IMG/VR virus record: IMGVR_UViG_2541047735_000003
Location: 1-40,965 of that record
From: a virus
Taxonomy: Duplodnaviria > Heunggongvirae > Uroviricota > Caudoviricetes
Length of the DNA: 40,965 bases
Direction: 5' to 3' (one strand)
Of the stretch, positions 9,921 to 32,955 are shown piece by piece. A program made the position numbers and the translations under genes. The first letter of the stretch is position 1. Each line of letters begins with the position of its first letter. The notes under the pieces are model-generated. The model was not told the origin of the DNA. It made no database searches and saw nothing but the letters and a program-made list of their open reading frames with translations.

Positions 9921-10251
9921 ATCCCCCGCAGAACGCAAAGCCGCGCAGCGCGCTCGGCAGTCCGCCGCCGGTGAGCGCAAAATTGAACTGGTGCTGGATA
10001 AGCAGGAGCAGGAAATGCTGGAGCGTAACTGTGCCACGCGTCGCCCCGGGCGTGCGCCTTACGAATTTGGTGAGTATATAGCGTTACTGACCCGCCAGGA
10101 TGATGCACGCGTGCGCGGGCGTATAAAATCGATCAGCAGAAAACGTTGCGGTAAGTGCGGCGAGAGAGTTCCAGTTAATTCATGCCCGTGTAATGGTGAC
10201 TCGCAATGCTGGGTGACCAAAGGCTGGCATGAAACGAAATTAATAGTGTGA
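9904..10251 (+). CDS. Hypothetical Cys-rich protein (CxxC...CPC), possible regulator
   Basis: 115 aa; C-terminal RKRCGKCGERVPVNSCPCNG zinc-finger-like cluster; GTG start (alternative GTG at 9913); its stop lies inside the GTGACATGTCAC palindrome. Confidence 0.4.
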   Translation: MRFVAKSPAERKAAQRARQSAAGERKIELVLDKQEQEMLERNCATRRPGRAPYEFGEYIALLTRQDDARVRGRIKSISRKRCGKCGERVPVNSCPCNGDSQCWVTKGWHETKLIV

Positions 10252-10260
10252 CATGTCACG
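10247..10260. repeat. 14-bp palindrome TGTGACATGTCACG (copy 1)
   Basis: Perfect 12-bp palindrome GTGACATGTCAC with conserved flanks; overlaps the stop of gene 9904..10251. Confidence 0.6.
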
Positions 10261-10268
10261 AAGGTGTT

Positions 10269-10481
10269 ATGCCAAAAATACGCTACGACCTTGAAGATAT
10301 GAGAGATAACTCAGCAAATTTTCCGAAAGAGGTTAAATTTCTCATGCATAAGTATGGTTGCGCCAGGAGGGATATAGTTATCGACAGTCAGCACCCTTGC
10401 GGCGAGGATGTAATTTTCATTCGCGGTAAATGGGAAGGGTATCTTGACGAGAGTTTTTACGATGAATTTGATGGACTTTGA
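10269..10481 (+). CDS. Hypothetical protein
   Basis: ORF-track frame 10248..10481; ATG at 10269 (MPKIRYD) preceded by GAAGGTG; no motif. Confidence 0.4.
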   Translation: MPKIRYDLEDMRDNSANFPKEVKFLMHKYGCARRDIVIDSQHPCGEDVIFIRGKWEGYLDESFYDEFDGL

Positions 10482-10523
10482 ATACTGCCGCCAACTATGG
10501 CGGCTTTATTTTGCATGGTACTA

Positions 10524-10538
10524 TTACCACAACGGTAA
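10524..10538. promoter_or_regulatory. Operator palindrome TTACCACAACGGTAA upstream of terminase small subunit
   Basis: Perfect site 17 nt upstream of ATG 10556. Confidence 0.55.
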
Positions 10539-10555
10539 CTATTACCACGGTGGTT

Positions 10556-11152
10556 ATGATGCCTGCTGAACCTAAAACCTATAAACGCAAATCAACGCAA
10601 TTTAAGCCACTAACAGCAATGCAGGAGGCTTATTGCCAGTCATACATCAAAACGCCTGAAAACCAGACTCAGGCAGCGATTAACGCAGGATTCTCCCCAA
10701 ATACAGCGGCAGTTAAAGCCAGTGTCATGATGCGCGATGAACGCATTCAAAAACGGATTGCCGAGTTGATGGAGGAGCGCAACAAACGAATGCGCGTCAG
10801 TGCTGATTACGTTCTCATGCGCCTGGTGGAGATCGACCAGATGGACGTGATCGACATCCTCAACGACGATGGGAGCCTTAAGCCAATCCGCGAGTGGCCG
10901 AAAATCTGGCGCACTACGCTTAGTGGCTTTGATCTGTCATCGACCATCATGAACATGAACGAGGATTCGATAGAGACAATCCTCAAAAAAATTAAATGGC
11001 CTGACAAGGTGAAGAACCTCGAACTGATTGGTAAGCACGTCGACGTCAACGCATTCAAAGAACGCCTGGATGTTAATGTGAATGTGACAATTGCTGATCG
11101 CATAGCGGCAGCCAGGAAGAGACTGAAAGAACGTCAGGATGGCAATCAGTGA
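10556..11152 (+). CDS. Terminase small subunit
   Basis: Directly upstream of and overlapping the large terminase; about 199 aa from ATG 10556 (ORF-track frame opens at TTG 10478); small-terminase-like region TPENQTQAAINAGFSPNTAAVKASVMM. Confidence 0.65.
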   Translation: MMPAEPKTYKRKSTQFKPLTAMQEAYCQSYIKTPENQTQAAINAGFSPNTAAVKASVMMRDERIQKRIAELMEERNKRMRVSADYVLMRLVEIDQMDVIDILNDDGSLKPIREWPKIWRTTLSGFDLSSTIMNMNEDSIETILKKIKWPDKVKNLELIGKHVDVNAFKERLDVNVNVTIADRIAAARKRLKERQDGNQ

Positions 11153-12624
11153 CAGATACAGCGTTATCTCCTGAAGAGCAGTTAATCGAGGATATTGCAG
11201 GGTTCACTCACGATCCGCTTGGCTATGCCCTCTATGCGTTCCCGTGGGGGGAAGAGGGTACTGAACTGGCACATGCCACCGGTCCACGTCAGTGGCAGGC
11301 CGATGCGTTCCGAGAGATACGTGATCACCTGCAGAATCCAGAGACGCGATATCAGCCGCTTATGCTGGCACGTGCTTCTGGTCACGGTATTGGTAAATCC
11401 GCATTCATCTCAATGCTGATCAACTGGGGCATGTCCACTTGCGAGGATTGTAAGGTCGTGGTGACCGCCAACACCGACAACCAGCTACGAACGAAGACCT
11501 GGCCGGAAATTATCAAGTGGTCAAACCTTGCTATCACGAAAGACTGGTTTACCTGTACCGCTACCGCGATGTACAGCAATGACCCTGGGCACGACAAGCG
11601 GTGGCGAGCTGACGCAATCCCCTGGTCTGAGCACAACACTGAGGCATTCGCCGGACTACACAACGAGCGTAAACGCATCATCGTGGTATTTGATGAAGCG
11701 TCGAACATTGCGGATCTGGTGTGGGAAGTTGCCGAGGGTGCGCTAACGGACGAAGACACTGAGATTATCTGGGTGGCTTTCGGAAACCCTACACGTAACA
11801 CCGGGCGTTTCCGTGAATGTTTCCGCAAATACAAACACCGCTGGAAAACTGCGCAGATTGACAGCAGGACGGTGGAAGGCACCAACAAACAGCAGTTGCA
11901 GAAATGGGTTGATGACTACGGGGAAGATAGCGACTTCGTTAAAATCCGTGTGCGTGGCATATTCCCTGATGCATCTGAATTGCAGTTTATCCCTACCGGT
12001 CTTACTGACGAGGCAATGAAACGGGTGGTAACTGCTGCGCAGGTGGCACATGCTCCGGTGATAATCGGCGTTGACCCGGCATACTCCGGCGTTGATGACG
12101 CTGTGATATACCTGCGGCAGGGGCTACACAGTAAGGTGCTGTGGACTGGCAACAAGACTACCGACGATCTGATTATGGCGAAGCGTATCGCTGACTTTGA
12201 AGACCAGTATCAGGCTGACGCGGTGTTCATCGACTTCGGTTACGGAACCGGTTTGAAGTCAATCGGTGACGGCTGGGGTCGTACATGGCAACTTGTTCCG
12301 TTCGGTGGCGCGTCTACTGACCAGCAGATGCTCAACAAGCGTGGGGAGATGTTCAACTCATGCAAGACATGGCTGAGGCTGGGCGGCATGCTTGATGACC
12401 AGGAAACAGCGGACGACCTGTCGGCGGCAGAGTACAAAGTTCGAGTGGACGGTAAAATCGTTATCGAACCGAAGGAAGATATCAAGGAGCGGCTTGGGCG
12501 TTCTCCTGGTAAAGGCGATGCGCTACTGCTGACGTTTGCGTTCCCGGTGTCAAAGCGCCTGCGAATTCCCGGGCAGCAGAACCAGCAAGGCAAGGCCATT
12601 ACAGATTACGATCCCTATGCTTAA
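11149..12624 (+). CDS. Terminase large subunit
   Basis: 491-aa protein; ATPase-like region (LARASGHGIGKSAF, VVFDEASNI) followed by a nuclease-like C-terminal half; canonical position after the small subunit. Confidence 0.85.
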   Translation: MTDTALSPEEQLIEDIAGFTHDPLGYALYAFPWGEEGTELAHATGPRQWQADAFREIRDHLQNPETRYQPLMLARASGHGIGKSAFISMLINWGMSTCEDCKVVVTANTDNQLRTKTWPEIIKWSNLAITKDWFTCTATAMYSNDPGHDKRWRADAIPWSEHNTEAFAGLHNERKRIIVVFDEASNIADLVWEVAEGALTDEDTEIIWVAFGNPTRNTGRFRECFRKYKHRWKTAQIDSRTVEGTNKQQLQKWVDDYGEDSDFVKIRVRGIFPDASELQFIPTGLTDEAMKRVVTAAQVAHAPVIIGVDPAYSGVDDAVIYLRQGLHSKVLWTGNKTTDDLIMAKRIADFEDQYQADAVFIDFGYGTGLKSIGDGWGRTWQLVPFGGASTDQQMLNKRGEMFNSCKTWLRLGGMLDDQETADDLSAAEYKVRVDGKIVIEPKEDIKERLGRSPGKGDALLLTFAFPVSKRLRIPGQQNQQGKAITDYDPYA

Positions 12625-12674
12625 TCCGTTAGCGGGGATAATGACGGAGATATCCTCTGGTGAGGATAAAACAA

Positions 12675-12694
12675 AGCCAGCTCATCGGCTGGCT
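12675..12694. terminator. Bidirectional stem-loop between terminase and convergent moron gene
   Basis: AGCCAGC-TCATCG-GCTGGCT with T-rich sequence on both strands. Confidence 0.45.
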
Positions 12695-12697
12695 GTT

Positions 12698-12711
12698 TGT
12701 GACATGTCACG
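12698..12711. repeat. 14-bp palindrome TGTGACATGTCACG (copy 2)
   Basis: Identical 14-mer between the terminase stop and the convergent minus-strand gene, immediately after hairpin 12675-12694. Confidence 0.6.
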
Positions 12712-12714
12712 GTG

Positions 12715-13086
12715 TTATTGCTCGCTTAACTTCTGCTTCAGCAAGTAACCTTCAAGCATCCAGATTTTGTTTACAGCATTCTGCCGGGCAATCTTCCGAC
12801 CAATTTCCGCATCAAAGTTTTCTGGGCTTGCACAGGCGCTCTCTCCGGTGACGGTGAAGCCGTTGCGCAGCACCAGAACGCAGAACGTCAGCAGAGAAAG
12901 TGATTCGTTCGGCTGGTAGTTTACCTCTCCGCCAGTATGTTTCGCTTTTATGGCCACGCCAAAGACACCATCTTCTGCTGTGAAATATGCCTCCTGAGCA
13001 ATAATGCTCTCGATATGGTCTGGCGTAACGCGCGGCGCGGCTAAACCTTTAGCCTGAATTTCAGATTCAATGTCTTTGTCACTCAT
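12715..13086 (-). CDS. Hypothetical phage protein (moron, opposite strand)
   Basis: 123-aa ORF on the minus strand between terminase and portal, co-oriented with the tRNA; bounded by a hairpin and the 14-bp palindrome. Confidence 0.5.
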   Translation of the reverse strand: MSDKDIESEIQAKGLAAPRVTPDHIESIIAQEAYFTAEDGVFGVAIKAKHTGGEVNYQPNESLSLLTFCVLVLRNGFTVTGESACASPENFDAEIGRKIARQNAVNKIWMLEGYLLKQKLSEQ

Positions 13087-13289
13087 AGTCTATTCTCAAC
13101 TTAAAAAAATGCCCGGCGAACCGGGCGAACTGGAGGCAATGAGTTATGCCTTCCGTGGCTGTACTGGTTTACAGCATGAAGTCATCGCAATGGCGTCCTG
13201 CTGTAAAAATGGCGGTGATAGTCCTTCAAGGGAAACCATCACCGCCAAGCCCCTGGAACTTCTGGCATCACGGTCCTTAGGCGTGATTC

Positions 13290-13366
13290 TGGCGTGGCAT
13301 GCAGGATTCGAACCTGCGACCAACCGCTTAGAAGGCGGTTGCTCTGTCCAACTGAGCTAATGCCAC
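13290..13366 (-). tRNA. tRNA-Arg (anticodon UCU)
   Basis: Minus strand reads GTGGCATTAGCTCAGTTGGACAGAGCAACCGCCTTCTAAGCGGTTGGTCGCAGGTTCGAATCCTGCATGCCACGCCA: 7-bp acceptor stem, D-arm, anticodon loop CTTCTAA (anticodon TCT), T-loop GGTTCGAATCC, encoded CCA. Confidence 0.85.
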
Positions 13367-14000: not shown

Positions 14001-14014
14001 CCGGAGTCATTGAA

Positions 14015-15694
14015 ATGGCGGAAACAACTAAAGAGCGATTGAACAAACAGTTCGCACAACTTGAAAGCGAGCGTCAGTCGTTCGAGCCGCACTGGCGCGA
14101 GTTGAGTGATTACATCAACCCGCGTGGTTCCCGCTTTCTGACTTCTGAGGTCAACCGTAACGATCGACGCAATACACGTATTATTGATTCGACCGGGACT
14201 ATGGCGGCGCGCACTCTCGCCAGCGGCATGATGTCAGGCATCACAAGCCCCGCGCGTCCGTGGTTTCGCCTGGCTACGCCAGATCCTGAAATGATGGATT
14301 ATGGCCCTGTTAAGTTGTGGCTTGAGGTGGTGCAGAACCGCATGAACGATATGTTCAATAAGTCGAATCTCTACCAGTCTCTTCCGCAGTTATACGGAAG
14401 CCTCGGCACATACAGCACTGGTGCAATGGCAGTGCTGGAGGATGACGAGGACATCATTCGCACAATGCCATTCCCGATAGGCAGTTACTACCTGGCTAAC
14501 TCACCTCGTGGCAGTGTGGACACCTGTTTTCGCAAGTTCTCTATGACTGTTCGTCAGCTTGTTCAGGAGTTCGGGCTAAATAACGTCAGCGAATCCGTAA
14601 AAAGCATGTGGGAAAGCGGCACCTACGAGAAGTGGATTGAAGTGATGCATTCGGTTTACCCGAACATTGACCGCGATACATCGAAGCTGGATAGCAAGAA
14701 CAAGCCATTCAAATCGGTTTATTACGAGGTTGGTGGCGATAACGACAAGTTGTTGCGTGAGTCCGGATTCGATGAGTTTCCAATTATGGCTCCGCGCTGG
14801 GAAGTTAACGGCGAAGATGTTTATGGATCATCATGCCCGGGTATGCTGGCGCTTGGACCTGTTAAGGCATTGCAGCTTCTCCAGAAGCGCAAGTCGCAGT
14901 TGATTGATAAAGCCACCAATCCGCCGATGGTTGCTCCGACTTCCCTCAAGAATCAGCGTGCCTCCCTTCTTCCTGGCGACATCACGTATATCGATCAGAT
15001 TACTGGTCAGGATGGTTTCAGGCCTGCTTATCTGGTTAACCCCAGTACAGCAGATTTGGTGGCAGACATTCAGGACACTCGTCAAATCATTAACAGCGCC
15101 TACTTTGTCGATCTGTTCATGATGTTGCAGAACATCAATACCCGCTCGATGCCTGTTGAAGCGGTGATCGAAATGAAAGAAGAAAAACTTCTGATGTTGG
15201 GGCCGGTTCTGGAGCGTCTGAACGACGAATGTCTTAATCCTCTCATTGACCGCTCTTTCTCGATGATGGTGCGTAAAAACATGCTGCCGCCACCGCCAGA
15301 CGTGATGGAAGGTATGCCCCTGAAGGTCGAATACATTTCCGTCATGGCTCAGGCGCAGAAGTCTATCGGCCTGTCCAGTCTGGCGTCCACGGTTAACTTC
15401 ATTGGTCAACTTGCGCAAGCGAAACCAGAAGCTCTCGACAAACTCAACGTTGATCAGGCGATCGATGCATTCGCTGATATGTCCGGAGTGTCTCCAACCG
15501 TCATTGTTCCGCAGGAACAGGTTGAGCAGGCTCGCCAGCAACGGGCACAGCAGCAACAGCAGCAACAAATGATGGCGATGGGGATGGCGGCGGCACAGGG
15601 TGCCAAGACGCTAAGCGAAGCTAAAACTTCGGATCCGAGTGTTTTGTCAGCTATGGCGAATGCAGTTAGTGGTCAGGGTGGGCAATCACAATGA
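14015..15694 (+). CDS. Portal (head-to-tail connector) protein
   Basis: 559-aa protein immediately after the terminase module, typical portal size; glutamine-rich C-terminus. Confidence 0.75.
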   Translation: MAETTKERLNKQFAQLESERQSFEPHWRELSDYINPRGSRFLTSEVNRNDRRNTRIIDSTGTMAARTLASGMMSGITSPARPWFRLATPDPEMMDYGPVKLWLEVVQNRMNDMFNKSNLYQSLPQLYGSLGTYSTGAMAVLEDDEDIIRTMPFPIGSYYLANSPRGSVDTCFRKFSMTVRQLVQEFGLNNVSESVKSMWESGTYEKWIEVMHSVYPNIDRDTSKLDSKNKPFKSVYYEVGGDNDKLLRESGFDEFPIMAPRWEVNGEDVYGSSCPGMLALGPVKALQLLQKRKSQLIDKATNPPMVAPTSLKNQRASLLPGDITYIDQITGQDGFRPAYLVNPSTADLVADIQDTRQIINSAYFVDLFMMLQNINTRSMPVEAVIEMKEEKLLMLGPVLERLNDECLNPLIDRSFSMMVRKNMLPPPPDVMEGMPLKVEYISVMAQAQKSIGLSSLASTVNFIGQLAQAKPEALDKLNVDQAIDAFADMSGVSPTVIVPQEQVEQARQQRAQQQQQQQMMAMGMAAAQGAKTLSEAKTSDPSVLSAMANAVSGQGGQSQ

Positions 15695-15987
15695 CAGATT
15701 ACGAAGACGATCAACTGAAAGAAGAAAACGCCCGTAAGCAACGTGACATGGCACAGCGTGAAATTGATGACATTCGCTTTGTCATGAGCAGTGAACAGGG
15801 GCGTCGCGTTGTCTGGTCGGTGCTGGAGAAAGGCCGTGTGTTTTCTGCTATCTCACCGATGGACGCTATGGCTATGGCATTTAATGAGGGGCAACGCAAT
15901 CTGGCGCTGGAACTGTTTCAGCGCGTTATGGCGCATTGCCCTGAACAGTATTTGAAGATGGCCAAAGAGGCCAGTGAACAGGAGTGA
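15691..15987 (+). CDS. Hypothetical head-assembly protein
   Basis: 98-aa ORF overlapping the portal stop; position only. Confidence 0.4.
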   Translation: MTDYEDDQLKEENARKQRDMAQREIDDIRFVMSSEQGRRVVWSVLEKGRVFSAISPMDAMAMAFNEGQRNLALELFQRVMAHCPEQYLKMAKEASEQE

Positions 15988-18895: not shown

Positions 18896-19500
18896 TGGCC
18901 TCTGTAGTAGAGATCTGCAATCGTGCGCTGTCCAATATTGGCAATAGCCGCAGCATTAACAGCCTGACGGAAGCCAGCAAGGAAGCGGGGGAATGTTCGC
19001 TGCACTTTGAGGCCTGCCGTGATGCTGTGCTTTCTGATTTTGACTGGAACTTTGCTACCAAACGCGTGGCGCTTGCAGATACGAGCAATCCACCGCCTGA
19101 CTGGGAATATGCGTATCAGTACCCGTCCGATTGTCTGCGCATTATTGAAATTATGCTTCCTGGTGTACGCAATCCAACAGCAGCAATGCGCGTTCAGTAC
19201 GAAGTTGGTGCAGACACCAACGGAACAGGAAAGTTGATCTACACAGACCAGCCGCAGGCATGGCTCAAGTATGTCTCTCGCGTTTCAGATGTGAACATGT
19301 TTGATGCCATTTTTATGGAGGCGTTGGCCTGGCGTCTTGCGGCAGCTATTAACATGGCGCTGACTGGGAATGCAGACCTCGGTACGTTTGCCCTCAATAT
19401 GTACAATCGCGTGATTCTTAGTGCTGGCTCGCATAGCCAGAATGAATCACAGGAACCACTGCCACCGGTTGACGAGTTTACCATTGCGAGGTTGTCCTGA
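18895..19500 (+). CDS. Hypothetical structural protein (head-tail adaptor candidate)
   Basis: 201-aa ORF, translationally coupled with neighbours in the structural operon. Confidence 0.4.
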   Translation: MASVVEICNRALSNIGNSRSINSLTEASKEAGECSLHFEACRDAVLSDFDWNFATKRVALADTSNPPPDWEYAYQYPSDCLRIIEIMLPGVRNPTAAMRVQYEVGADTNGTGKLIYTDQPQAWLKYVSRVSDVNMFDAIFMEALAWRLAAAINMALTGNADLGTFALNMYNRVILSAGSHSQNESQEPLPPVDEFTIARLS

Positions 19501-21971
19501 TGGCTATCAGTTGGATCCAGCCCAGCTTTGCCGGTGGTGAGATTGGACCGTCGTTGTACGGTCGTATTGACATGGCGAAGTACCAGGTGGCATTGCGCAA
19601 GTGCGATAACTTTATCGTGCGGCAGTATGGCGGAGTTGAGAATCGACCTGGTACGCGTTTTGTCGGTGCCGCCAAATACCCAAATCGGAAATGCCGCCTG
19701 ATCCCGTTCCAGTTCTCGACGGTTCAGACTTATGCTCTGGAGTTCGGACACCAGTACATGCGCGTTATCAAAGATGGTGCGTTGGTGCTGAACAGCAGCA
19801 ATGTTATTTATGAAATTTCCACGCCATATACTGAAACCGATCTGTTCCGAATTAAATTCACGCAAAGCGCAGACGTGCTTACGCTGGTTCATCCGGCATA
19901 CCCGCCGAAAGAGTTGCGCCGCTATGCGCATGACAACTGGCAACTGGTTGATGTGGTAACGAAGAACGGGCCATTTGAAGATATCAATATTGACGAGTCA
20001 GTGACGGTTTATGCCAGCGCCAGCACCGGGACAATTACGCTAACGGCAAGCGCCTCTATTTTTGGCGCGGAGCAGGTAGGAAAATTGTTCTATCTGGAAC
20101 AGCCTGCAGTGGATTCTGTGCCGGTATGGGAAACCAGTAAGAGTACGTCGATTGGCGATATTCGCCGTGCAGACAGTAACTACTATCGCGCCGTTACAGC
20201 AGGCAAAACAGGTACTTTGCGCCCTTCGCATACAGAAGGCACATCATGGGATGGCTGGGGCGGATCCGGTGATGATGATACTGGCATTGAGTGGGAATAT
20301 CTGCACAGTGGTTTTGGCATTGCCCGTATCACTGCTGCAAATGGAACTACTGCAACTGCCGAGGTGATTTCCTATATCCCTTCGCAGGTCGTGGGCGAGG
20401 ATAATGCCAGCTATAAATGGGCTAAATATGCCTGGAACAGTGTTAATGGTTATCCTGGCACTGTTGTTTATTATCAACAACGTCTTTACTTCGCCGCATC
20501 GACTGCGTTTCCTCAGACTATCTGGGCCAGCCGTACCGGGGATTATAAGGATTTTGGCAAAAGCAATCCTACGCAGGATGACGACAGAATTATCTACACC
20601 TATGCCGGACGTCAGGTTAATGAGATCCGCCACCTGATTGATGTTGGTTCTCTGGTGGCGCTGACTTCCGGAGGTGAGTACGTCATCACCGGCGACCAGA
20701 ACAAAGTGTTAACCCCATCATCATTTGCATTCAGCTCTCAGGGATCAAATGGCTCAAGCAACGTCCCGCCAATTGCCGTGGCGAATATTGCTCTGTTCGT
20801 CCAGGAGAAAGGCAGCGTTGTCCGTGATCTGGCCTACTCATTCGATGTTGACGGCTATCAGGGGAACGACCTGACCATCCTTGCCAATCATCTTTTTCAG
20901 AAGCACAGCATTGTTGACTGGTGCTTCTCGATAGTCCCTTACTCCAGCGCCTTCTGCATTCGTGATGACGGTAAATTACTGGTGATGACCTATTTGCGTG
21001 ATCAACAGGTTTTTGCATGGGCACCACAGTCCAGTACCGGAAAATATGAAAGCACATGCAGTATCAGCGAAGGCAATGAAGATGCGGTGTATTTCGTCAT
21101 TAACCGAACCGTTAACGGGCAAACAGTGAGATACATCGAGCGACTGTCCAGCCGTTTATTTACCAGCGATGAAGATGCTTTCTTTGTTGATTCTGGCCTT
21201 AGCTATGATGGAAGAAATACGTCTGACAGAACGATGACCATCACTGGTGGTTCTGGCGAATGGGATTACCGCGCGGAATATACAATCAGTGTTTCTGGTG
21301 GTGCGTACTTCACCAGTAGTGATGTCGGCGCGCAACTACAGTTCCCTTATACCGGAACTGATCCTGATACTGGCGATGAGGTGTCAAAAGAATTACGTTG
21401 CGACATTATTTCTGTAACCAGCAATACCGCTGTAGTGGTTCGTGCTAACAGGAACGTCCCGCCATCCCTCAGGAATGTGGCCACCACGAACTGGCAGATG
21501 GCGCGCCGGACATTTGGAGGCCTGTCTCATCTTGAAGGCCAGACCGTAAACATTCTCTCTGATGCGAACGTGGAACCACAGAAAGTGGTTTCCGGAGGTG
21601 CCGTCACGCTGGAATCTCCGGGGGCTGTAGTGCACATCGGCCTGCCAATAACTGCTGAATTCGAAACACTGGATATCAACATTAACGGACAGGAAACGCT
21701 GCTGGACAAAAAACAGGTGATCCCCTCCGTTACTCTGGTTGTGAATGCCAGTCGCGGCATCTGGGCGACTACGCCCGGCGGTAAATGGTACGAATATCCA
21801 CAGCGTGAATTCGAGTTCTACGATGATCCTGTTGATGACGCTACCGGAAAAGTAGAGGTAAAACTGGACAGTAACTGGGGCAAAAACGGACGTGTAAGAA
21901 TCCGTCAGCTTGACCCGTTGCCGCTGTCTGTTCTTGCTGTTATTCCTCGCCTTACTGTTGGGGGATTCTGA
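19500..21971 (+). CDS. Large tail hub / tail tubular protein candidate
   Basis: 823-aa protein between the head genes and the internal virion proteins; no tape measure or sheath genes are present, consistent with a short-tailed virion. Confidence 0.5.
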   Translation: MAISWIQPSFAGGEIGPSLYGRIDMAKYQVALRKCDNFIVRQYGGVENRPGTRFVGAAKYPNRKCRLIPFQFSTVQTYALEFGHQYMRVIKDGALVLNSSNVIYEISTPYTETDLFRIKFTQSADVLTLVHPAYPPKELRRYAHDNWQLVDVVTKNGPFEDINIDESVTVYASASTGTITLTASASIFGAEQVGKLFYLEQPAVDSVPVWETSKSTSIGDIRRADSNYYRAVTAGKTGTLRPSHTEGTSWDGWGGSGDDDTGIEWEYLHSGFGIARITAANGTTATAEVISYIPSQVVGEDNASYKWAKYAWNSVNGYPGTVVYYQQRLYFAASTAFPQTIWASRTGDYKDFGKSNPTQDDDRIIYTYAGRQVNEIRHLIDVGSLVALTSGGEYVITGDQNKVLTPSSFAFSSQGSNGSSNVPPIAVANIALFVQEKGSVVRDLAYSFDVDGYQGNDLTILANHLFQKHSIVDWCFSIVPYSSAFCIRDDGKLLVMTYLRDQQVFAWAPQSSTGKYESTCSISEGNEDAVYFVINRTVNGQTVRYIERLSSRLFTSDEDAFFVDSGLSYDGRNTSDRTMTITGGSGEWDYRAEYTISVSGGAYFTSSDVGAQLQFPYTGTDPDTGDEVSKELRCDIISVTSNTAVVVRANRNVPPSLRNVATTNWQMARRTFGGLSHLEGQTVNILSDANVEPQKVVSGGAVTLESPGAVVHIGLPITAEFETLDININGQETLLDKKQVIPSVTLVVNASRGIWATTPGGKWYEYPQREFEFYDDPVDDATGKVEVKLDSNWGKNGRVRIRQLDPLPLSVLAVIPRLTVGGF

Positions 21972-25602: not shown

Positions 25603-27300
25603 ATGCCAATTTACACAGATGATCCGGGACAGGGCATTAACCAGCCAATTGGCAACGCGCCAGCAGGGCTTGGCGAATCGCTGCTTTCTTCCCTTAAGCA
25701 GGGATTTGAAGAGGGGCCGGTCATGTCCGGCTACCGCTTTGCGCAGGTCGACTCGCTGGCGAATGACCCAAACTCTACAGTTATCAGTAAGCAGGACGCA
25801 GATGAGCTCCTGAAGCAGTACGGCGTAAAGAGCATAAACGTGCCAGATTCTGGCGTTACGCAGGCTTTTCTCGATCATGTTATTGCCGAACGCAAAGATT
25901 CTCTGGCACGCCAGCAGATTGCGATGTCGGCACCGAGCGGGTGGGTAGCCACGCCGCTTAATTTCGCAGCCAGCCTAGCTGGTTCAATGGCAGATCCTGG
26001 TAACGTGGCGCTGGCGCTGGTTCCGTTCGCTGGAGAAGCAAAGGCAGCTTCTGTGCTTGGCCGATTTGGCGAGCGATTTGTTGCGGGTGCACGCATGGGG
26101 GCAGCGCAGGCGGTGGTGACCGTGCCGCTTACCGGGCTGGCAGCGGCGGCGGAAGGTGACGACTTCACCTATAGCAACGCGTTGGAAAGTACTTTCTTTA
26201 ACACGATGGCTGGCGGTCTAATGCATGCCGGCGGCGGCCTTATCGCCGATATCGTGCGACCGCGTCGCGTTCCCGATGCTGCAACGGGAGAGTCCCCGGC
26301 GTTTTCTGGCGATGCGCAGCCAACCCCGGTGATAACGCCTGACAACATTCCGGCGGGCGTGAATATCCCTGAGGTTGGCGCTAACGCAGATCTGGCGGCG
26401 GCCATTTCCAATGAAGCGGAGAGCTACGCATACAGCCGGGCTTATGACGACGTGATTCCTGACTATATGGCGCGCCAGCAGGAGTTACAGAGCGGACAGA
26501 TCGGTAACGTTGCCGACCTGCGTGCCGAGCTTGCGGCTAATCAACGTCATGCTGACTCGCTTGATGCGACGCTGCAGCAGCGCACCAAAAAGTATCAGGG
26601 GCAGCGGATGAAGTTTAAGGATGCGCGCTCTAGGGCACTGAAAGAGATTCAGGCCGAGAAAGACGCCATCGCTGCACGCAATCAGGAGATCAACACATCG
26701 CTGGAGCAGAACGCGACAGCAGAGCAGGCGCGCTGGCGCCAGTCTCAGATTTCCCGCGGCGAGATCCCCGACGACCTGAAAGTCACCATTTCCGAGCGTG
26801 CGCAGCAGATCCTGGACGGCATGCAGATGTCGCCGGTCGCTGGCGCAGTTCGCACTGCCGCAAGCGCCATCAGGGATGCTGACTGGAGCGTGAACCAGCA
26901 GGCGTATCGCGCTGCGCTGGCACACATGATGGAAGGACGTAGCCCAGATGTTGAGCCCTTCTATGAACTGCACAAATCGGCACTGCGTGAACGCGCCATC
27001 CATCGCATACAGAACCCGGCACGGCAGGTTGATGAAACGGCTCGCCCAGCAAGCGAAACAGCCGATCGGGTTTATCAAGAAACGCAAAAGGCAGATCATG
27101 AAATTACCGCTGCCGCTGCAGACCTTGATAACGAGCTCAACCTGAGTAACGCCCTGCTTGACGATATCGCTGTCGATAACCCTGATCTTGCGACCACGTT
27201 GCGCCAGAAACTCAATGATATTCGTGCCGACGCCAGCGACAATAGCATGAGCAACGCTTTCCGGGCATTTGCCGCCTGTATGATTAACCGGGGGATGTGA
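25603..27300 (+). CDS. Internal virion / ejection protein
   Basis: 565-aa protein in tandem with the other large ejection proteins. Confidence 0.5.
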   Translation: MPIYTDDPGQGINQPIGNAPAGLGESLLSSLKQGFEEGPVMSGYRFAQVDSLANDPNSTVISKQDADELLKQYGVKSINVPDSGVTQAFLDHVIAERKDSLARQQIAMSAPSGWVATPLNFAASLAGSMADPGNVALALVPFAGEAKAASVLGRFGERFVAGARMGAAQAVVTVPLTGLAAAAEGDDFTYSNALESTFFNTMAGGLMHAGGGLIADIVRPRRVPDAATGESPAFSGDAQPTPVITPDNIPAGVNIPEVGANADLAAAISNEAESYAYSRAYDDVIPDYMARQQELQSGQIGNVADLRAELAANQRHADSLDATLQQRTKKYQGQRMKFKDARSRALKEIQAEKDAIAARNQEINTSLEQNATAEQARWRQSQISRGEIPDDLKVTISERAQQILDGMQMSPVAGAVRTAASAIRDADWSVNQQAYRAALAHMMEGRSPDVEPFYELHKSALRERAIHRIQNPARQVDETARPASETADRVYQETQKADHEITAAAADLDNELNLSNALLDDIAVDNPDLATTLRQKLNDIRADASDNSMSNAFRAFAACMINRGM

Positions 27301-29849: not shown

Positions 29850-29850
29850 T

Positions 29851-30222
29851 ATGAACAGAATTATATTAATGATTATTCTTATGCTTTTAGTTGTAAAATC
29901 TTTTGCAGATACTACCTCACCGTTAATGATTCAGCCTAAAAATGGGGAAACACTGGAGGATTCTAAAAAGCATACAATGGAATATTTTGGATGTATAAAA
30001 GGGCAGGCCGTAAAATACGCTAAGACAGGAGAAAGTGTTGATTCTATATCCAAAGCTTCGGTTGTGTCATGCGAGTCGTACATACAAAAGATTGCTGAAT
30101 CAAATATATACTATTTAAATTCCTCTCAAGACGGTAAGCGGAAATTTATTGGAAGGCTTAAATCAGATGGTGAAAGTTTAGCAACGAAATTTGCTATGGA
30201 TGAAAAGCTAAAAAATAAATAG
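29851..30222 (+). CDS. Secreted small protein (AT-rich moron)
   Basis: 123-aa ORF with N-terminal signal-peptide-like MNRIILMIILMLLVVKSFA; visibly AT-rich codon usage compared with flanking structural genes. Confidence 0.55.
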   Translation: MNRIILMIILMLLVVKSFADTTSPLMIQPKNGETLEDSKKHTMEYFGCIKGQAVKYAKTGESVDSISKASVVSCESYIQKIAESNIYYLNSSQDGKRKFIGRLKSDGESLATKFAMDEKLKNK

Positions 30223-30372
30223 GTGACTACATGCAAGCGATAGGATTCATTGGGCTGATGGTTTGCAGCTAACCTGCAAGTTTGCGAAGTGCCAAACAAA
30301 TAATCTCACGGCGCTGTTCATCCCCAGGAAGCTGCATTGTGATTTTCACAATGCAGGTTTTAAACCACTGCT

Positions 30373-30579
30373 TCATTTTCGTAAAGCCATACAAATCATG
30401 GCTTGCACCCCACCGGCAGAAGGTATGGTGATTTCCACCATACCCTTCGAGAAGCGTTGAGAAATCTTCTTATGTTGAGATTTCCAGTCTAGACCCATTC
30501 CCTCAACGATAGGTTTCATTGGGGTGTACGGTTCGCCGTTGTGATTGACAACATAAAGTTCTACGCCGTGGAATGGCAC
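30373..30579 (-). pseudogene. Truncated antirepressor N-terminal fragment
   Basis: 68-aa ORF whose sequence (NGEPYTPMKPIVEGMGLDWKSQHKKI) resembles the N-terminal domain of P22-type antirepressors but ends after about 68 residues, far shorter than full-length antirepressors. Confidence 0.4.
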
Positions 30580-30726
30580 GTTGATAGTAGTGACAAGTTT
30601 GAAACATCGCTGGTTGTAAGCCAGCAGATGCTCGTTATTTTACATCGCGGTACAATTTCTCGCTGGTGGCTCTTTTACACACCTTAACCAAATACGGTTG
30701 ATTTTAATGTTTTTTCGCGCTTATCA

Positions 30727-30741
30727 TTACCTTTTCGGTAA
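30727..30741. promoter_or_regulatory. Operator palindrome TTACCTTTTCGGTAA at head of antirepressor leader 1
   Basis: Perfect site followed by TTTACA, a hairpin and an intrinsic terminator. Confidence 0.55.
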
Positions 30742-30831
30742 ATTTACATCGCGCTCATCTTGTGCCATAGTAATCGGGCACTGGCAAAATCCAGTGCCGG
30801 GATTGGCGTCCCGGGTTACTAAGTGGCGCAT

Positions 30832-30854
30832 ACCACGCCAGACGTGGTTTTTTT
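30832..30854 (+). terminator. Intrinsic terminator inside antirepressor leader 1
   Basis: ACCACG-CCAGA-CGTGGT followed by seven T; about 155 bp upstream of the antirepressor start codon. Confidence 0.6.
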
Positions 30855-31010
30855 ATGCGTTAAGCACAGCTATATCCGAATTATGGTGGGCTGGGCAGGG
30901 GTCCGAAAGGACGCCGGTACCACTTAGGCCGGTACGCCAACCTTGTCCAGTTCACCACCAGTAATTGGCGTTGCGGTGGTGATTAAAATCACTAAGTGGA
31001 GATAACCACC

Positions 31011-31721
31011 ATGGCTAATGCTCAAACTGCCATCTTCAAATTTGAATCTGTTAACCCTATCCGTTCCATCATTATCGATGGCCAACCATGGTTTGTAGCC
31101 CAAGACGTTTGTAGTGCGCTGCGTATCCAAAACGTCACCCAAGCACTTGAAAAACTGGATGATGATGAAAGGTCTATGTTCAACATAGGGCATGAACATC
31201 GTGCAATTTTTGACAGCCGAGTAAAAGAGATCAACATCATCTCCGAGTCAGGCCTCTACACACTGATCCTCCGCTGCCGCGACGCAGTGACACCAGGCAC
31301 TATCCCCTACCGCTTTCGTAAATGGGTTACAGGTGAGGTTCTTCCTCAGATCCGCCGCACCGGAAGTTACATTAAAAACTCGCTCCCGCAGGAAGAACGC
31401 ATAAAGATAGTTGCCGACCAGGTAGCCAACGCCACAGCATCAGCAGTGATGCAGGCAATGAAGATAGAGAACAAAACCTACAGTGCCCCGCTGAAGCCCG
31501 GCTACCGCAGCCTGATTCATTCTCCGTCTGGTGTTCTCGGCCTGACGGAGAACTCACTGCTGATGAATCTGCTGAACCAGTTACAGGACGACGGGCACGA
31601 CGTATCGGGCGCGGCGGCGGAGCTGACCACCATGTTCTGCTACATCGTCGGTGTGAGTAAATGCCTGCGTGATATCCAGACCCACGCGGAATACATCAAC
31701 GACAAGGCAGGGTTCTTCTGA
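31011..31721 (+). CDS. Bro-N domain antirepressor-like protein (copy 1)
   Basis: N-terminal Bro-N-like motif (DGQPWFVAQDVCSALRI); C-terminal about 135 aa nearly identical to the convergent paralog 32993..33730; ATG 31011 (ORF-track frame starts 30996). Confidence 0.65.
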   Translation: MANAQTAIFKFESVNPIRSIIIDGQPWFVAQDVCSALRIQNVTQALEKLDDDERSMFNIGHEHRAIFDSRVKEINIISESGLYTLILRCRDAVTPGTIPYRFRKWVTGEVLPQIRRTGSYIKNSLPQEERIKIVADQVANATASAVMQAMKIENKTYSAPLKPGYRSLIHSPSGVLGLTENSLLMNLLNQLQDDGHDVSGAAAELTTMFCYIVGVSKCLRDIQTHAEYINDKAGFF

Positions 31722-31752
31722 CGGGCGGTGGCACAGGGATGTGCCTTTAAAT
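31308..31752 (+). repeat. Inverted repeat: 3' half of antirepressor copy 1
   Basis: About 445 bp nearly identical in inverse orientation to 32962..33406, extending about 30 bp past the stop codon. Confidence 0.65.
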
Positions 31753-31793
31753 AATTCTGTACAGATTGCAGACCGGGGGTGAATAGCGTACTA

Positions 31794-31808
31794 TTACCTT
31801 AAAGGTAA
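31794..31808. promoter_or_regulatory. Operator palindrome TTACCTTAAAGGTAA upstream of cargo operon
   Basis: Perfect site 43 bp upstream of ATG 31851. Confidence 0.55.
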
Positions 31809-31850
31809 ACCTGTTTTTATTTTATACCTGTAACTTACCGGAGATTAAAG

Positions 31851-32177
31851 ATGACAAAACTTGGATTCGTGATGAGAGGTCCGGTAAGAAGCGGAACTCA
31901 TGCAAAGCGTAGCAAGAGTCGTATTTTTACTGGTAAGGTTGTAGCACGTAAATCAGCTATTGGCTCGTTCAATAGTGAAAATGCGGCATTGCGCCATATT
32001 TTTATCAGCACAAAGCCAAGAGCATCCGCTGATGTGCATACAATGTCTATTCCTATCACAAAGAATATAAAGCGGATAAAAAAGCTCTCATCTGCAGAAT
32101 CAAAAGAGATATCTTTCCGCCAGCTTAACTCATTAGAAACGCATATGAAGGAAGAGGAATTCGATGTTTTTGAGTGA
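31851..32177 (+). CDS. Hypothetical basic protein, first gene of AT-rich cargo operon
   Basis: 108 aa, Lys/Arg-rich; GGAG upstream; overlaps the downstream gene by 14 nt; no recognisable family. Confidence 0.5.
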   Translation: MTKLGFVMRGPVRSGTHAKRSKSRIFTGKVVARKSAIGSFNSENAALRHIFISTKPRASADVHTMSIPITKNIKRIKKLSSAESKEISFRQLNSLETHMKEEEFDVFE

Positions 32178-32676
32178 GTATAGCGGGAAGGTTATACCTA
32201 CTGGTGAGTTTAAAACTGATGACTTTCTGATTTCGCTAAAAGATGCTTTTAAACAACACTGGCGTCATGGTCATCATCCTGATCTGGGAAAAGATACTCT
32301 TTTTGAAAGACCAGAGGAAGTATTAGGCTTCCATCTCAGAAAGGTTCATGTCAATATTGGTGAATATGCATCATATTCATACTCATGTACTGAACAGTGT
32401 TGGGATGAGTGGTCATATGGATTGATTGATGAACAAGGAAATTACAGGCCAAAACCAACCAGTAACGCATATCTCATATATGCAGTCAATGAAATAAGAG
32501 ATGCAGCCTTACTAGCTTATTGGGACCCGCCCGCACACACCAAAGCTAACGCAAAAGTTTGGATGGATTCCGTATTGAATTTCACAAAATTATTTCATGA
32601 ACGAACGAATACAGCTCCACTTAGTAGAAATGTTTATCCGTGGGATTATTCGTACAAATCCAAAAAGCCTGCATAG
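32164..32676 (+). CDS. YafO-like toxin candidate
   Basis: 170 aa; segments FHLRKVHVNIGE and TSNAYLIYAV...AALLAYWDPPAHTKA resemble the YafO pattern as recalled from memory; AT-rich. Confidence 0.4.
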   Translation: MFLSEYSGKVIPTGEFKTDDFLISLKDAFKQHWRHGHHPDLGKDTLFERPEEVLGFHLRKVHVNIGEYASYSYSCTEQCWDEWSYGLIDEQGNYRPKPTSNAYLIYAVNEIRDAALLAYWDPPAHTKANAKVWMDSVLNFTKLFHERTNTAPLSRNVYPWDYSYKSKKPA

Positions 32677-32757
32677 TAGTTTTTTATGGACGAAACAAAA
32701 GTCAGTGCTACACTCATTGACGCCACATTGAGGTGGTTTATAGATGGAAATTTCACA

Positions 32758-32919
32758 ATGAAAAAAGCATTTGCTGCACTGTTCGTTTTGTTGTCTCTGG
32801 TAGCTTCAACTCAGGCCTTTGCCGGTCGTTGTCAGCACGACAGCGACACTGCTGCTGACGGCTCCCGCTGCGGTGGGCGTTCTGCGGATTCCCGCCCGGG
32901 TGGCGGTGGCATTCGTTAA
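32758..32919 (+). CDS. Small secreted peptide
   Basis: Internal ATG of ORF 32686..32919 gives MKKAFAALFVLLSLVASTQAFA signal peptide followed by a short Gly/Arg/Cys-containing mature region. Confidence 0.45.
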   Translation: MKKAFAALFVLLSLVASTQAFAGRCQHDSDTAADGSRCGGRSADSRPGGGGIR

Positions 32920-32924
32920 AAACA

Positions 32925-32942
32925 AGGCCGCGAAAGCGGCCT
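32925..32942. terminator. Stem-loop between cargo operon and antirepressor copy 2
   Basis: AGGCCGC-GAAA-GCGGCCT; T-rich on the minus strand, so it likely terminates antirepressor copy 2. Confidence 0.45.
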
Positions 32943-32955
32943 GTGACATGTCACG
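32942..32955. repeat. 14-bp palindrome TGTGACATGTCACG (copy 3)
   Basis: Identical 14-mer between the cargo operon and the 3' end of antirepressor copy 2, immediately after hairpin 32925-32942. Confidence 0.6.

Follow-up and report, generated by a model that had tools for sequence, protein, structure and literature searches.

A short palindrome at gene ends of temperate phages, the probable binding site of a phage-encoded protein

Why does a temperate phage carry three identical copies of one 14-mer, TGTGACATGTCACG, at three of its gene junctions? The window, which is the whole stretch of 40,965 nt analysed here, derives from a phiV10/epsilon15-type temperate podovirus. A preliminary description had pointed to the three copies and proposed, among other roles, a binding site for an unknown factor or a recombination linker. 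Comparison of phage sequences supports the first proposal and indicates that the palindrome is very probably the cognate site of a protein that the phage itself encodes, the product of 9913..10251 (phiV10 gp55 / epsilon15 gp49 / N15 gp46). Our complete reading, to which we give a probability of roughly 0.5, is that the palindrome is the operator of this protein and that the bound protein represses by obstructing RNA polymerase where transcription units end.

The palindrome and its surroundings

The three exact copies stand where they had been described (Table 1); an analytic calculation gives an expectation of 0.03. Allowing up to two mismatches to the 14-mer, the window contains 7 strand-matches versus 0.34 expected, a number equalled by none of 100 shuffles. 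The sequence had been called a 14-bp palindrome. This is true of the inner 12-mer, GTGACATGTCAC, which is a perfect 12-bp palindrome, but the 14-mer is imperfect because its outer T and G are unpaired. Similarly, copies 1 and 2 do share extra flanking identity, as claimed: GGTGTTAT follows both (10263-10270 and 12711-12718), although with a 3-nt difference in offset between the two. A fourth, one-mismatch copy, GTGACATGGCAC, coincides with no homology breakpoint and is kept in E. coli members only, which makes its function doubtful.

Table 1. Features of the window at and around the copies of the palindrome
Feature	Position	Strand	Remark
Gene for the 112-aa candidate binding protein	9913..10251	+	phiV10 gp55 / epsilon15 gp49 / N15 gp46 family; phrog_536
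Palindrome copy 1	10247..10260 (core 10248-10259)	none	Overlaps stop codon of 9913..10251
Small accessory ORF, phrog_1541	10269..10481	+	Insertion directly after copy 1
Intrinsic terminator GCCGCCAACTATGGCGGC + TTTATTTT	10487..10512	+	Downstream of copy 1
Probable late (terS) promoter region	10516..10557	+	Extended -10 TGgTACTAT (10516-10524), read by eye
GC hairpin	12675..12694	-	Terminator call; between terL (11149..12624, +) and minus-strand accessory gene
Palindrome copy 2	12698..12711 (core 12699-12710)	none	Hairpin 3 nt away
Accessory gene	12715..13086	-	PF13876, N4 gp49 / Sf6 gene 66 family
One-mismatch fourth copy	15742..15755 (12-mer 15743-15754)		Inside Bbp19-like ORF 15691..15987
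C4/isrK-controlled antirepressor-type operons	30778..32919; 33916..32993	+; -	Converge on copy 3
GC hairpin GGCCGC-tttc-GCGGCC with T-run	32925..32942	-	Terminator of Bro-N antirepressor operon
Palindrome copy 3	32942..32955 (core 32943-32954)	none	Meeting point of two converging operons

As reported, copies 2 and 3 adjoin GC-rich hairpins, at distances of 3 nt and 0 nt, respectively. A terminator scan called both hairpins on the minus strand alone (tails TTGTTTTATC and TGTTTTTAAC), and on that strand the order at both copies is gene stop, palindrome, hairpin, T-run (copy 2 lies 4 nt past the stop of the accessory gene). Terminator status belongs to these neighbours; the palindrome itself does not form the GC-rich hairpin with T-run that characterizes an intrinsic terminator. 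Copy 1 includes the TGA (10249-10251) of 9913..10251, the final gene of the early-right operon, and its end lies 9 nt from the ATG of the small accessory ORF, which is missing in phiV10, TL-2011b and epsilon15. The terminator beyond this ORF is homologous to one found 23 nt past copy 1 in epsilon15, SPN1S and Tyrion.

No promoter is predicted at copy 1, the region of copy 2 has no suitably spaced -10, and the sole promoter-like matches in the region of copy 3 are far from the palindrome. A general -35 role for the GTGACA half-site was considered and rejected, as a correctly spaced -10 exists only at Salmonella/Enterobacter site 1 and in the divergent contig L558. Two operator-type palindromes of a different motif, ATTACC-N5-GGTAAY, lie in the terS promoter region (10523-10539 and 10541-10557; the terS ATG is at ~10556), and the equivalent of this motif is labelled a 'repressor' binding site in the epsilon15 record. 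A set of ATTACC-N5-GGTAAT operators is present in the window, at positions other than those of TGTGACATGTCACG. That the late terS operon has its own downstream promoter and operator was counted for repressive or boundary-type action at the 12-mers. A CI/Cro-type operator was likewise rejected: no copy of the 12-mer falls within the cI/cro intergenic region, and the epsilon15 'repressor' motif is the other palindrome.

The preliminary description had named absence from related phages as evidence against the motif. In fact, every relative examined carries it at the orthologous junctions. In phiV10, TL-2011b, SPN1S, Tyrion, epsilon15 and a Klebsiella prophage, a set spanning Escherichia, Salmonella, Enterobacter and Klebsiella, the 12-mer does not vary at any of the three junctions, while flanks and adjacent hairpins are divergent. 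Column conservation is maximal on the site compared with the non-coding flank; the site resists change while its surroundings drift.

The copies had further been placed at module junctions, correctly so as a description, which raises the question of whether the palindrome serves in module exchange, inversion or accessory insertion and is retained for mosaicism. Homology breakpoints do cluster within 10 nt of sites 1, 2 and 3 (66, 22 and 5-9 loci), the accessory ORF was inserted 2 nt after copy 1, the hairpin-plus-palindrome unit of copy 3 is inverted in phiV10 relative to the window, and RecT/exonuclease-type recombination genes are present in the phage. However, the palindrome is missing from most other strong junctions of the window (9888, 4704, 13088, 2784 and 8896), and the peak at site 1 reflects a single indel inherited by many loci; a general linker role is therefore not supported. 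Junctions are in any case expected beside any conserved island in free sequence. Nor would a linker explain the strict spacer and Y/R flanks of the site, its occurrence as a single copy in some genomes, its register in a stop codon or its co-variation with one protein family, all described below. We consider this role very unlikely.

Co-occurrence of the site with one phage gene

We pair the palindrome with the 9913..10251 product because gene and site co-occur across unrelated phage types, namely podo-, myo- and siphoviruses, P2-like phages, N15-like phage-plasmids and Vibrio phages. The motif Y-GTGAC-NN-GTCAC-R is found 1-3 times per genome in 13/13 complete gene-bearing genomes, against ~0.03 expected (per-genome P about 1e-6 to 1e-2). 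These genomes include the myoviruses ZF40 and AH07, a P2-like Yersinia phage, N15/phiKO2 and a Vibrio siphovirus whose protein has 32% identity. The controls P22 and L-413C (P2-like), both of which lack the gene, have no site. Among 183 loci retrieved by protein similarity in four clades, 172 have the site over the TGA stop of the family gene, in the same G-TGA-C register (E. coli-type 76/80, Yersinia P2-like 47/54, N15-like 34/34, phiKO2-like 15/15), counts that overstate the number of independent events because many loci are phylogenetically related. The arrangement persists in members with 23-27% identity, and two fringe members, L554 and L559, have no site at the gene end.

Scans in the other direction started from the DNA. 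Of 120 viral contigs chosen by the bare 14-mer, 46 have the gene in the stored piece and a further 33 show homology to regions with a site; when the N15-type and Yersinia-type 14-mers are used instead, the corresponding protein clades are retrieved. A bare 14-mer scan is unspecific on its own, with chance matches expected, and becomes informative once the matches are tested for the gene.

Could a host protein be the true ligand, either MatP tolerating a shorter spacer or a factor of CRP/FNR type, with linkage to the gene incidental? The half-sites match those of matS, TGTGA/TCACR resembles CRP half-sites, the spacing of TGTGA-N4-TCAC is FNR-like, and the motif is kept in phages of several host genera. 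Yet at >170 loci the site encloses the stop codon of one phage gene, where the gene is missing from phages of these hosts so is the site, the spacer is strictly 2 nt with the 3-nt spacer of matS virtually absent, and the central dinucleotide follows the protein clade despite overlapping host ranges. Binding by a host factor is thus quite improbable. Nor is there anything in favour of the restriction or methylation target that had also been proposed; the strict linkage is to a 112-aa protein that is not an enzyme.

Many phages have one site only, as do the Yersinia P2-like phages. Others have conserved sites inside genes, in repA of N15/phiKO2, cII and gp08 of ZF40 and the integrase gene of L557, and these intragenic sites were counted in favour of repressive or boundary-type action. 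A copy in AH07, at 34430, codes for part of a Q-like protein, its CVTCHG zinc motif, and may be conserved on that account.

Recognition of the site and the candidate protein

The grammar of the site is strict. In family-bearing DNA, 339 matches have a 2-nt spacer versus 0-3 for each other length from 0 to 8, and the outer flank is a pyrimidine in 302/302 half-sites. Across clades with 23-95% protein identity, the half-sites show neither covariation nor compensatory changes, and in N15 the asymmetric centre reads TG or CA without regard to the direction of transcription. Recognition is, to judge from these patterns, DNA-like. It is extremely unlikely that the palindrome acts instead as an RNA element, a 3'-UTR hairpin (GUGA-CAUG-UCAC) affecting mRNA stability, processing or translational coupling at the UGA-C stop. 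All copies are indeed transcribed, each either separating a stop codon from a terminator or closely preceding the next start, and the TGA register recurs at other genes, in a copy at the stop of epsilon15 gp18 and in a degenerate copy at the Rz stop of SPN1S/epsilon15. But the half-sites are invariant, the 2-nt centre is unable to loop and therefore allows at most a weak 4-bp stem, the centre is not oriented consistently with respect to transcription, and no Rfam family covers the sites.

Two host systems share letters with the palindrome. CRP sites have the same TGTGA and TCAC half-site letters, but the preliminary judgement that the spacing does not fit CRP was sound: a CRP site reads TGTGA-N6-TCACA, whereas every phage copy has N4 (TGTGA-N4-TCACG). 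The outer base is A for CRP and R in the phage motif, and the latter is linked to a phage gene. The inverted half-sites GTGAC / GTCAC are identical to those of matS, a 13-bp site with a 3-nt centre, GTGAC-RNY-GTCAC (PMC6907758, PMC3603311; consensus GTGACRNYGTCAC, PMC6907758). At 12 bp, with a 2-nt centre, the phage site is one bp shorter, and it lies at gene ends on phage DNA rather than in the chromosomal terminus. Prophages have been reported to be without true matS, which is avoided there (PMC3603311); there is a single site with a 3-nt centre in 3.8 Mb of family-bearing DNA.

Our model of the 112-aa protein (AF2, 62-sequence alignment, pLDDT 92.7) predicts an N-terminal basic helix, a ribbon-helix-helix (RHH) domain and a C-terminal Cys4 knuckle; it supersedes an earlier low-confidence model from a shallow alignment (pLDDT 63). 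Sequence searches gave no matches in Pfam (even at E<=10), NCBIfam or PDB and no antiterminator match in Pfam, PHROG or NCBIfam, and hhalign gave no significant match to any RHH family or to MatP (probability 0.3-0.6%). The predicted beta-strand residues differ between clades while the half-site is constant, so the DNA-reading element may be the conserved N-terminal basic helix (R8, R13). A toxin-antitoxin or other two-gene cassette was rejected, as no downstream partner gene is common to the clades. A literature search found no published description of the 12-mers or of the protein family; a 'gp46' detected in the proteome of a telomere-phage lysogen could not be mapped to the phiV10 gp55 family.

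The identity of half-sites suggests a viral counterpart of MatP/matS, which would organise, pair or position phage DNA or affect host MukBEF/MatP rather than transcription, with the 2-nt spacer ensuring orthogonality to host MatP. Hosts of the family (Escherichia, Salmonella, Klebsiella, Enterobacter, Yersinia, Pectobacterium, Pantoea, Vibrio, Aeromonas) are taxa that possess MatP, and the sites are few and widely spaced per genome, like matS, while true matS is essentially absent. MatP, of the Ter macrodomain system of E. coli and Vibrio, combines a four-helix bundle, an RHH domain and a C-terminal coiled coil; the phage protein has neither bundle nor coil but ends in the Cys4 knuckle. We rejected homology to MatP, since a 62-sequence profile aligned to E. 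coli MatP with an insignificant hhalign probability of 0.3%, MatP is absent from the HMMER PDB matches, and Foldseek of the model against PDB returned no significant match and did not recover MatP. In addition, phages with a single site, such as the Yersinia P2-like ones, cannot bridge in cis, and the sites are closely bound to gene ends, terminators and promoters. Such a counterpart is unlikely. Doubtful, too, is its more specific form, a miniature private MatP/matS in which a small RHH-zinc protein at 1-3 sites would organise or pair genomes or steer host condensin/MatP off or on phage DNA; if true, it could bear on the evolutionary origin of MatP. A matS site minus one bp in any case offers a testable idea, that phages are invisible to, or copy, the chromosome-organising system of the host.

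Repression, antitermination and related systems

How might the protein act at these sites? In the operator reading, it would be made at the close of early transcription and would bind a few high-affinity sites, a symmetric dimer reading Y-GTGAC-NN-GTCAC-R on double-stranded DNA. The 2-nt rather than 3-nt spacer would keep the site private to the phage protein. The bound sites would be those at the 3' ends of its own gene and of the accessory gene beside the terminase operon, and at the antirepressor/virion junction; in other phages, sites inside early genes would be bound as well. The protein would obstruct RNA polymerase repressively: at sites that overlap a -35 it would occlude the promoter, and at the others it would serve as a roadblock or boundary, so that neighbouring operons are insulated and its own synthesis possibly limited. 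A more speculative and doubtful extension is that, with the operator inside the stop codon, polymerase would stall before the stop and yield non-stop mRNA, a testable form of roadblock-type feedback. The location of sites at gene or operon 3' ends was counted for repressive or boundary-type action, and RHH proteins are overwhelmingly repressors; even so, we hold such action to be about an even chance.

The same protein and site might also work with the opposite sign, as a late switch analogous to lambda Q. From a DNA site in or close to a promoter or terminator, the protein would let RNA polymerase pass the intrinsic terminators that lie between early and late genes and between one late operon and the next. 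As with lambda Q and P22 gene 23 (qut, P-late, t-late), the family gene is the last early gene, directly before the late operon in Uetakeviruses, with a DNA site beside the gene and a terminator between site and late genes. Against repression, the gene occupies the lambda Q position in several divergent phages. In these Vibrio-type and lambdoid-type contigs, it is followed by a strong sigma-70 promoter, one or two terminators, and holin, lysozyme and terminase genes, an arrangement that corresponds to P22 gene 23 / P-late / t-late; these contigs show no other recognisable antiterminator. The full promoter-terminator-lysis layout is seen in L555, L557, L558 and L559 and is weak in SPN1S. In SPN1S/epsilon15/Tyrion and L558, site and predicted -35 overlap and a terminator follows. 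A hairpin and T-run come closely after each of the three Uetakevirus sites, an arrangement in the genus of the window that fits antitermination at least as well as repression.

Other features argue against a Q analogue. The protein has no sequence similarity to the Q family and no fold similarity, and separate regulators stand beside the family gene in several phages, a Q-like gene in N15/phiKO2 and AH07 and Ogr in P2-like phages. Sites 2 and 3 of the window, at convergent junctions, precede minus-strand accessory terminators, where read-through would give antisense RNA only; the window sites are outside predicted promoters, and the late terS promoter is equipped with an extended -10 and operators of its own. 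The conserved intragenic sites would have no obvious role, and the L557 site is ~95 bp upstream of the predicted start, beyond Q-type contact. On balance, we find the Q analogue rather unlikely.

An own-protein operator would supply a probable function and an exact DNA target for a conserved hypothetical gene of many temperate phages and prophages of E. coli, Salmonella, Klebsiella, Yersinia, Pectobacterium and Vibrio. The site is unmarked in the published annotations even of the model phages epsilon15, phiV10, N15 and ZF40. It would add a second regulatory layer beside CI-type operators, at operon boundaries and next to terminators, with relevance to the timing of terminase, virion and antirepressor expression and to the engineering of phiV10-type reporter phages.

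Among known regulators, the RHH repressors P22 Arc and Mnt and the antitoxins MazE, ParD and TacA (CopG family) belong to the same predicted fold class as the phage protein and share with it small size, an expected dimer unit and a short palindromic operator; Y-GTGAC-NN-GTCAC-R lies within the range of ~8-14 bp of palindrome per dimer typical of RHH operators. Their operators, however, are located in the promoters of their own genes, where tetramers often bind tandem half-operators, whereas the phage family has a single site of 12-14 bp in the stop codon, a C-terminal Cys4 and no conserved toxin or partner.

CopB (RepA2) of the IncFII plasmids R1/R100 is a small RHH-type regulator whose operator overlaps the defined repA promoter. 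We rejected homology, as the expected elements align but with an insignificant hhalign probability of 0.6%; the AH07 record nonetheless names its family homolog a 'RepB-like replication regulatory protein'. CopB has no zinc knuckle and acts on a defined promoter, whereas the phage protein has its Cys4 knuckle, no promoter is predicted at copy 1 of the window, and the phage family has further sites elsewhere in the genome. In both cases, a palindromic operator lies at the 3' end of the regulator's own gene, and by this layout the phage protein, like CopB, would control the transcription that leaves its own gene.

The palindrome in the window and its relatives

The window belongs to a phiV10/epsilon15-type temperate podovirus of the genus Uetakevirus, and long stretches of it are 95–97% identical to E. 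coli phages of this group. As reported in the preliminary description, the 14-mer TGTGACATGTCACG occurs three times exactly, and we confirm the positions of these copies (see table). With up to 2 mismatches to TGTGACATGTCACG allowed, the window holds 7 strand-matches versus 0.34 expected, a number reached in 0 of 100 shuffles; one further copy, GTGACATGGCAC, has a single mismatch and lies within an ORF. The motif had been described as a 14-bp palindrome. Its inner 12 bases, GTGACATGTCAC, are indeed perfectly palindromic, but the outer T and G are unpaired.

GC-rich hairpins directly adjoin copies 2 and 3, as was also described, and a terminator scan calls both of them, but solely for the minus strand. 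Followed in that direction, each of these two copies comes after a gene stop and before the hairpin and its T-run. The TGA stop of a 112-aa ORF of the phiV10 gp55/epsilon15 gp49/N15 gp46 family falls inside copy 1, and 9 nt separate the end of this copy from the ATG of a small inserted ORF. The extra identity noted beside copies 1 and 2 exists as an 8-mer, GGTGTTAT, downstream of both, but the offsets differ by 3 nt. At copy 1 the inserted ORF draws its ribosome-binding site and ATG from this 8-mer; at copy 2 the 8-mer is the end of a minus-strand gene. It could be a trace of recombination at the palindrome, or chance.

Features of the window around the palindrome copies
Feature	Position	Strand	Remarks
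ATTACC-N5-GGTAAY copies	5197, 5259, 5971, 6019, 8278, 8340, 10523, 10541, 13688, 30726, 31793, 33952, 34332		
Last early gene, 112-aa ORF	9913..10251	+	followed by copy 1
Palindrome copy 1	10247-10260		holds TGA stop, 10249-10251
GGTGTTAT near copy 1	10263-10270		
Accessory ORF, phrog_1541	10269..10481		inserted after copy 1
Intrinsic terminator	10487-10512		3′ of accessory ORF
Two ATTACC-N5-GGTAAY palindromes and extended -10	between terminator and terS		-10 placed by eye
terS	start at about 10556		
Terminator hairpin at copy 2	12694-12675	-	plus TTGTTTTATC
Palindrome copy 2	12698-12711		
GGTGTTAT near copy 2	12711-12718		
tRNA-Arg, anticodon TCT	13290-13366	-	variable region, terL to portal operon
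One-mismatch copy	15743-15754		within ORF
isrK (RF01394), then C4 antisense RNA (RF01695)	30778-30962	+	upstream of antirepressor-type ORF 30996..31721 (+)
YafO-like toxin ORF	32164-32676	+	weak Pfam match, E 7e-4
Terminator hairpin at copy 3	32942-32925	-	plus TGTTTTTAAC
Palindrome copy 3	32942-32955		
isrK (RF01394), then C4 antisense RNA (RF01695)	33734-33916	-	upstream of antirepressor-type Bro-N gene 33730..32993 (-)

The motif is retained at the orthologous junctions of related phages. In phiV10, TL-2011b, SPN1S, Tyrion, epsilon15 and a Klebsiella prophage, GTGACATGTCAC is invariant at all three: at the stop codon of the gp55/gp49 gene; directly after the terL hairpin, beside the stop of a minus-strand accessory gene; and directly after the last virion gene, immediately ahead of a hairpin and T-run. 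Flanks and hairpin sequences vary among these phages while GTGACATGTCAC is constant, and column conservation is highest on the site when set against the non-coding flank. Of 80 E. coli-type loci picked by protein similarity, 75 carry copy 1 without a mismatch. At the third junction of phiV10, the hairpin-plus-palindrome unit is inverted with respect to the window. The linear GenBank record of phiV10 begins and ends midway through copy 1 (39100-39104 joined to 1-9, TGTGA followed by CATGTTACG), which makes the site invisible in it. It had been suggested that the palindrome is a recombination linker marking mosaic junctions. Breakpoints do cluster at the sites, yet most other junctions lack the motif, and this role is unlikely.

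A degenerate copy (GTGACATGTCAT / GTGACATGGCAT) lies over the Rz TGA stop at the end of the lysis operon in SPN1S (26722-26733) and epsilon15 (26618-26629), sharing the G-TGA-C register. In epsilon15, copy 3 holds the TGA stop of gp18. The two isrK-C4 modules of the window represent P1-type immunity-I control, and their operons converge on copy 3. Copy 3 is also where the accessory operon with the YafO-like ORF ends; a YafO-family toxin is annotated in the equivalent region of TL-2011b.

A different palindrome, ATTACC-N5-GGTAAY, is marked in the epsilon15 record as the operator of the prophage repressor. In the window it gives 35 strand-matches with up to 2 mismatches, versus 3.5 expected, and precedes essentially every operon; GTGACATGTCAC is therefore a separate, second motif. 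The operator's presence ahead of the cI/cro region, the late operon and the antirepressor operons implies that CI controls late promoters directly. The late terS operon probably has a promoter/operator region to itself, beyond the terminator. Annotated terS starts in phiV10 (1-715) and SPN1S (1-669), as well as the window ORF from 10478 (10478-10560), take in the intrinsic terminator and the operator-like palindromes. The true start is probably the downstream ATG listed in the table, and several public terS annotations thus look overlong at the 5′ end.

Linkage of the palindrome to the gp55/gp49/gp46 family

Beyond the genus, tblastn finds homologs of the 112-aa protein in Pectobacterium myovirus ZF40, Pantoea myovirus AH07, P2-like Yersinia phages, the phage-plasmids N15 and phiKO2, and Vibrio and Aeromonas phages. 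All 13 complete genomes with the gene carry 1–3 copies of GTGAC-NN-GTCAC, where a first-order Markov model predicts 0.015–0.037 per genome (P about 1e-6 for three-copy genomes). One copy typically overlaps the gene's own stop codon in a fixed register: the final sense codon ends with the first G of the motif, whose positions 2-4 are then the TGA. This register is seen in 76/80 E. coli-type, 47/54 Yersinia P2-like, 34/34 N15-like and 15/15 phiKO2-like loci, which were chosen by protein similarity and hence without bias for the motif, although many are interrelated and the counts are not independent events. The arrangement is kept at 23–27% identity in divergent family members (L557, GTGACCGGTCAC; L555, GTGACGGGTAAC) and is absent from two fringe members. 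The central dinucleotide goes by clade, being AT, GC, or TG/CA, and gene and site agree across four to six deeply diverged clades.

The association also holds from site to gene. Among 120 viral contigs with the exact window 14-mer, the stored piece includes the family gene in 46, and another 33 are homologous to site-bearing regions of reference phages. Scanning with the N15-type 14-mer retrieves the N15/phiKO2-clade gene in 25 of 28 gene-bearing loci. For the Yersinia-type 14-mer, 114 matches exist in the whole collection; in its 52 gene-bearing loci, the gene is of the Yersinia/Vibrio clade in 48 and the site lies at the gene's 3′ end in 44. Neither gene nor any site is present in the controls, P22 and the P2-like L-413C. 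This linkage bears out the earlier idea that the palindrome binds a factor not then known; most probably, this is the phage-encoded protein of the gp55/gp49/gp46 family. Beside such gene–site agreement, the proposal of a restriction target appears unlikely.

The family is compact, with 202 clusters at 50% identity among 1.84 billion representatives. Its phrog_536 label, "transcriptional regulator", comes without evidence behind it. Searches of Pfam, NCBIfam and PDB yielded no sequence match to the 112-aa product, and hhalign against CopB and MatP (4d8j_B) aligned the expected elements without significance; none of these comparisons places it significantly in a named family. A structure model based on a 62-sequence alignment has pLDDT 92.7, versus 63 from a shallow alignment. 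It predicts a basic helix (residues 5-18, with R8 and R13 nearly invariant), an extended segment, helices at 30-42 and 52-75, and a Cys4 knuckle (C79 and C82 invariant, C99 nearly so) followed by a short helix. Judging from this model, the protein likely has a ribbon-helix-helix (RHH) type DNA-binding fold.

In Yersinia phage vB_YenM_201.16 (7292-7345), the stop-codon site is followed by a 7-codon mini-ORF, MKIKYVV, whose own TGA is part of another, half-degenerate site, GTGACGTGTCGT, some three helical turns farther downstream. AH07 carries an exact GTGACATGTCAC at 34430-34441, inside a gene for a Q-like "antitermination protein", where it codes for the zinc-finger motif CVTCHG. Related contigs keep this copy, which may be an accident of the coding sequence and not a place of binding.

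Reading of the site and its possible action

In 3.8 Mb of family-bearing DNA, the spacer between GTGAC and GTCAC is exactly 2 nt in 339 cases, while every other spacer from 0 to 8 nt occurs 0–3 times. In all 302 cases a pyrimidine adjoins the half-site on its outer side, so that the consensus reads Y-GTGAC-NN-GTCAC-R. At the level of sequence, a strict spacer and invariant half-sites are the mark of double-stranded DNA that is read by a symmetric protein dimer, and not of RNA structure. That the palindrome acts as an RNA element, as its place beside terminator hairpins might suggest, is unlikely: compensatory change between half-sites is never seen, asymmetric centres are oriented independently of transcription, and the sites have no Rfam matches.

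The 3′ end of a transcription unit is where most of the sites are located. The site at the family gene's own stop codon, the end of an early operon, is found in all phage types. Others lie at the end of the accessory gene facing terL, at the junction of convergent antirepressor or virion operons and, in N15/phiKO2, in the interval that separates the repA operon's last gene from the predicted promoter of the immA antirepressor operon. Further conserved sites fall within early genes, namely repA of N15/phiKO2, cII and gp08 of ZF40, and the integrase gene of L557. RHH proteins are generally repressors, and single perfect palindromes fit high-affinity obstacles; we therefore favour a repressive action, at roughly even odds. 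Where the site overlaps a predicted -35 (SPN1S and the divergent L558), the bound protein would occlude the promoter. Elsewhere it might serve as a roadblock or boundary that insulates neighbouring operons. More speculatively, a roadblock at the gene's own stop codon could stall polymerase inside the ORF, providing negative feedback.

The main rival casts the family protein as a late switch resembling Q. In divergent contigs of Vibrio and lambdoid type (L555, L557, L558, L559 and Vibrio phage K308, 32654-33514), the gene occupies the Q slot (cf. P22), followed by a strong near-consensus sigma-70 promoter, one or two intrinsic terminators and holin/lysozyme/terminase genes, and these contigs have no other recognisable antiterminator. 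In Uetakevirus, moreover, 3/3 sites precede a hairpin and T-run. However, Q or Ogr coexists with the family gene in other phages, some sites are intragenic, the terminators that follow copies 2 and 3 of the window belong to minus-strand accessory operons, and about 95 bp separate the L557 site from the predicted start.

Comparison with matS and other regulators

The host MatP protein binds matS, GTGACRNYGTCAC (PMC6907758 Table 2; PMC3603311 methods). The half-sites of the phage palindrome are identical to those of matS, whereas its centre is one base pair shorter. Among 500 prophages of Escherichia and Salmonella, Bobay et al. found no matS, from which they inferred counter-selection (PMC3603311). 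Family-bearing sequence contains a single true matS, GTGACACCGTCAC, in K308 (19491-19503). The hosts of the phage family presumably coincide with the MatP-bearing orders. Binding of the site by a host factor, to which this likeness might point, is nonetheless unlikely. The likeness lies in the appearance of the site and possibly in the mode of its reading; it speaks neither for binding by host MatP nor for MatP homology of the protein.

We found no description of the gene–site pair in the literature searched, and the site is unmarked in the annotated records of epsilon15, phiV10, N15, phiKO2 and ZF40. The proposed system, a small phage regulator, probably of RHH type, with a palindromic operator, is a variant of a familiar kind. 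What is unusual about it is that the operator is embedded in the regulator's stop codon, that sites lie at operon ends beside terminators, and that matS half-sites are combined with a private spacer.
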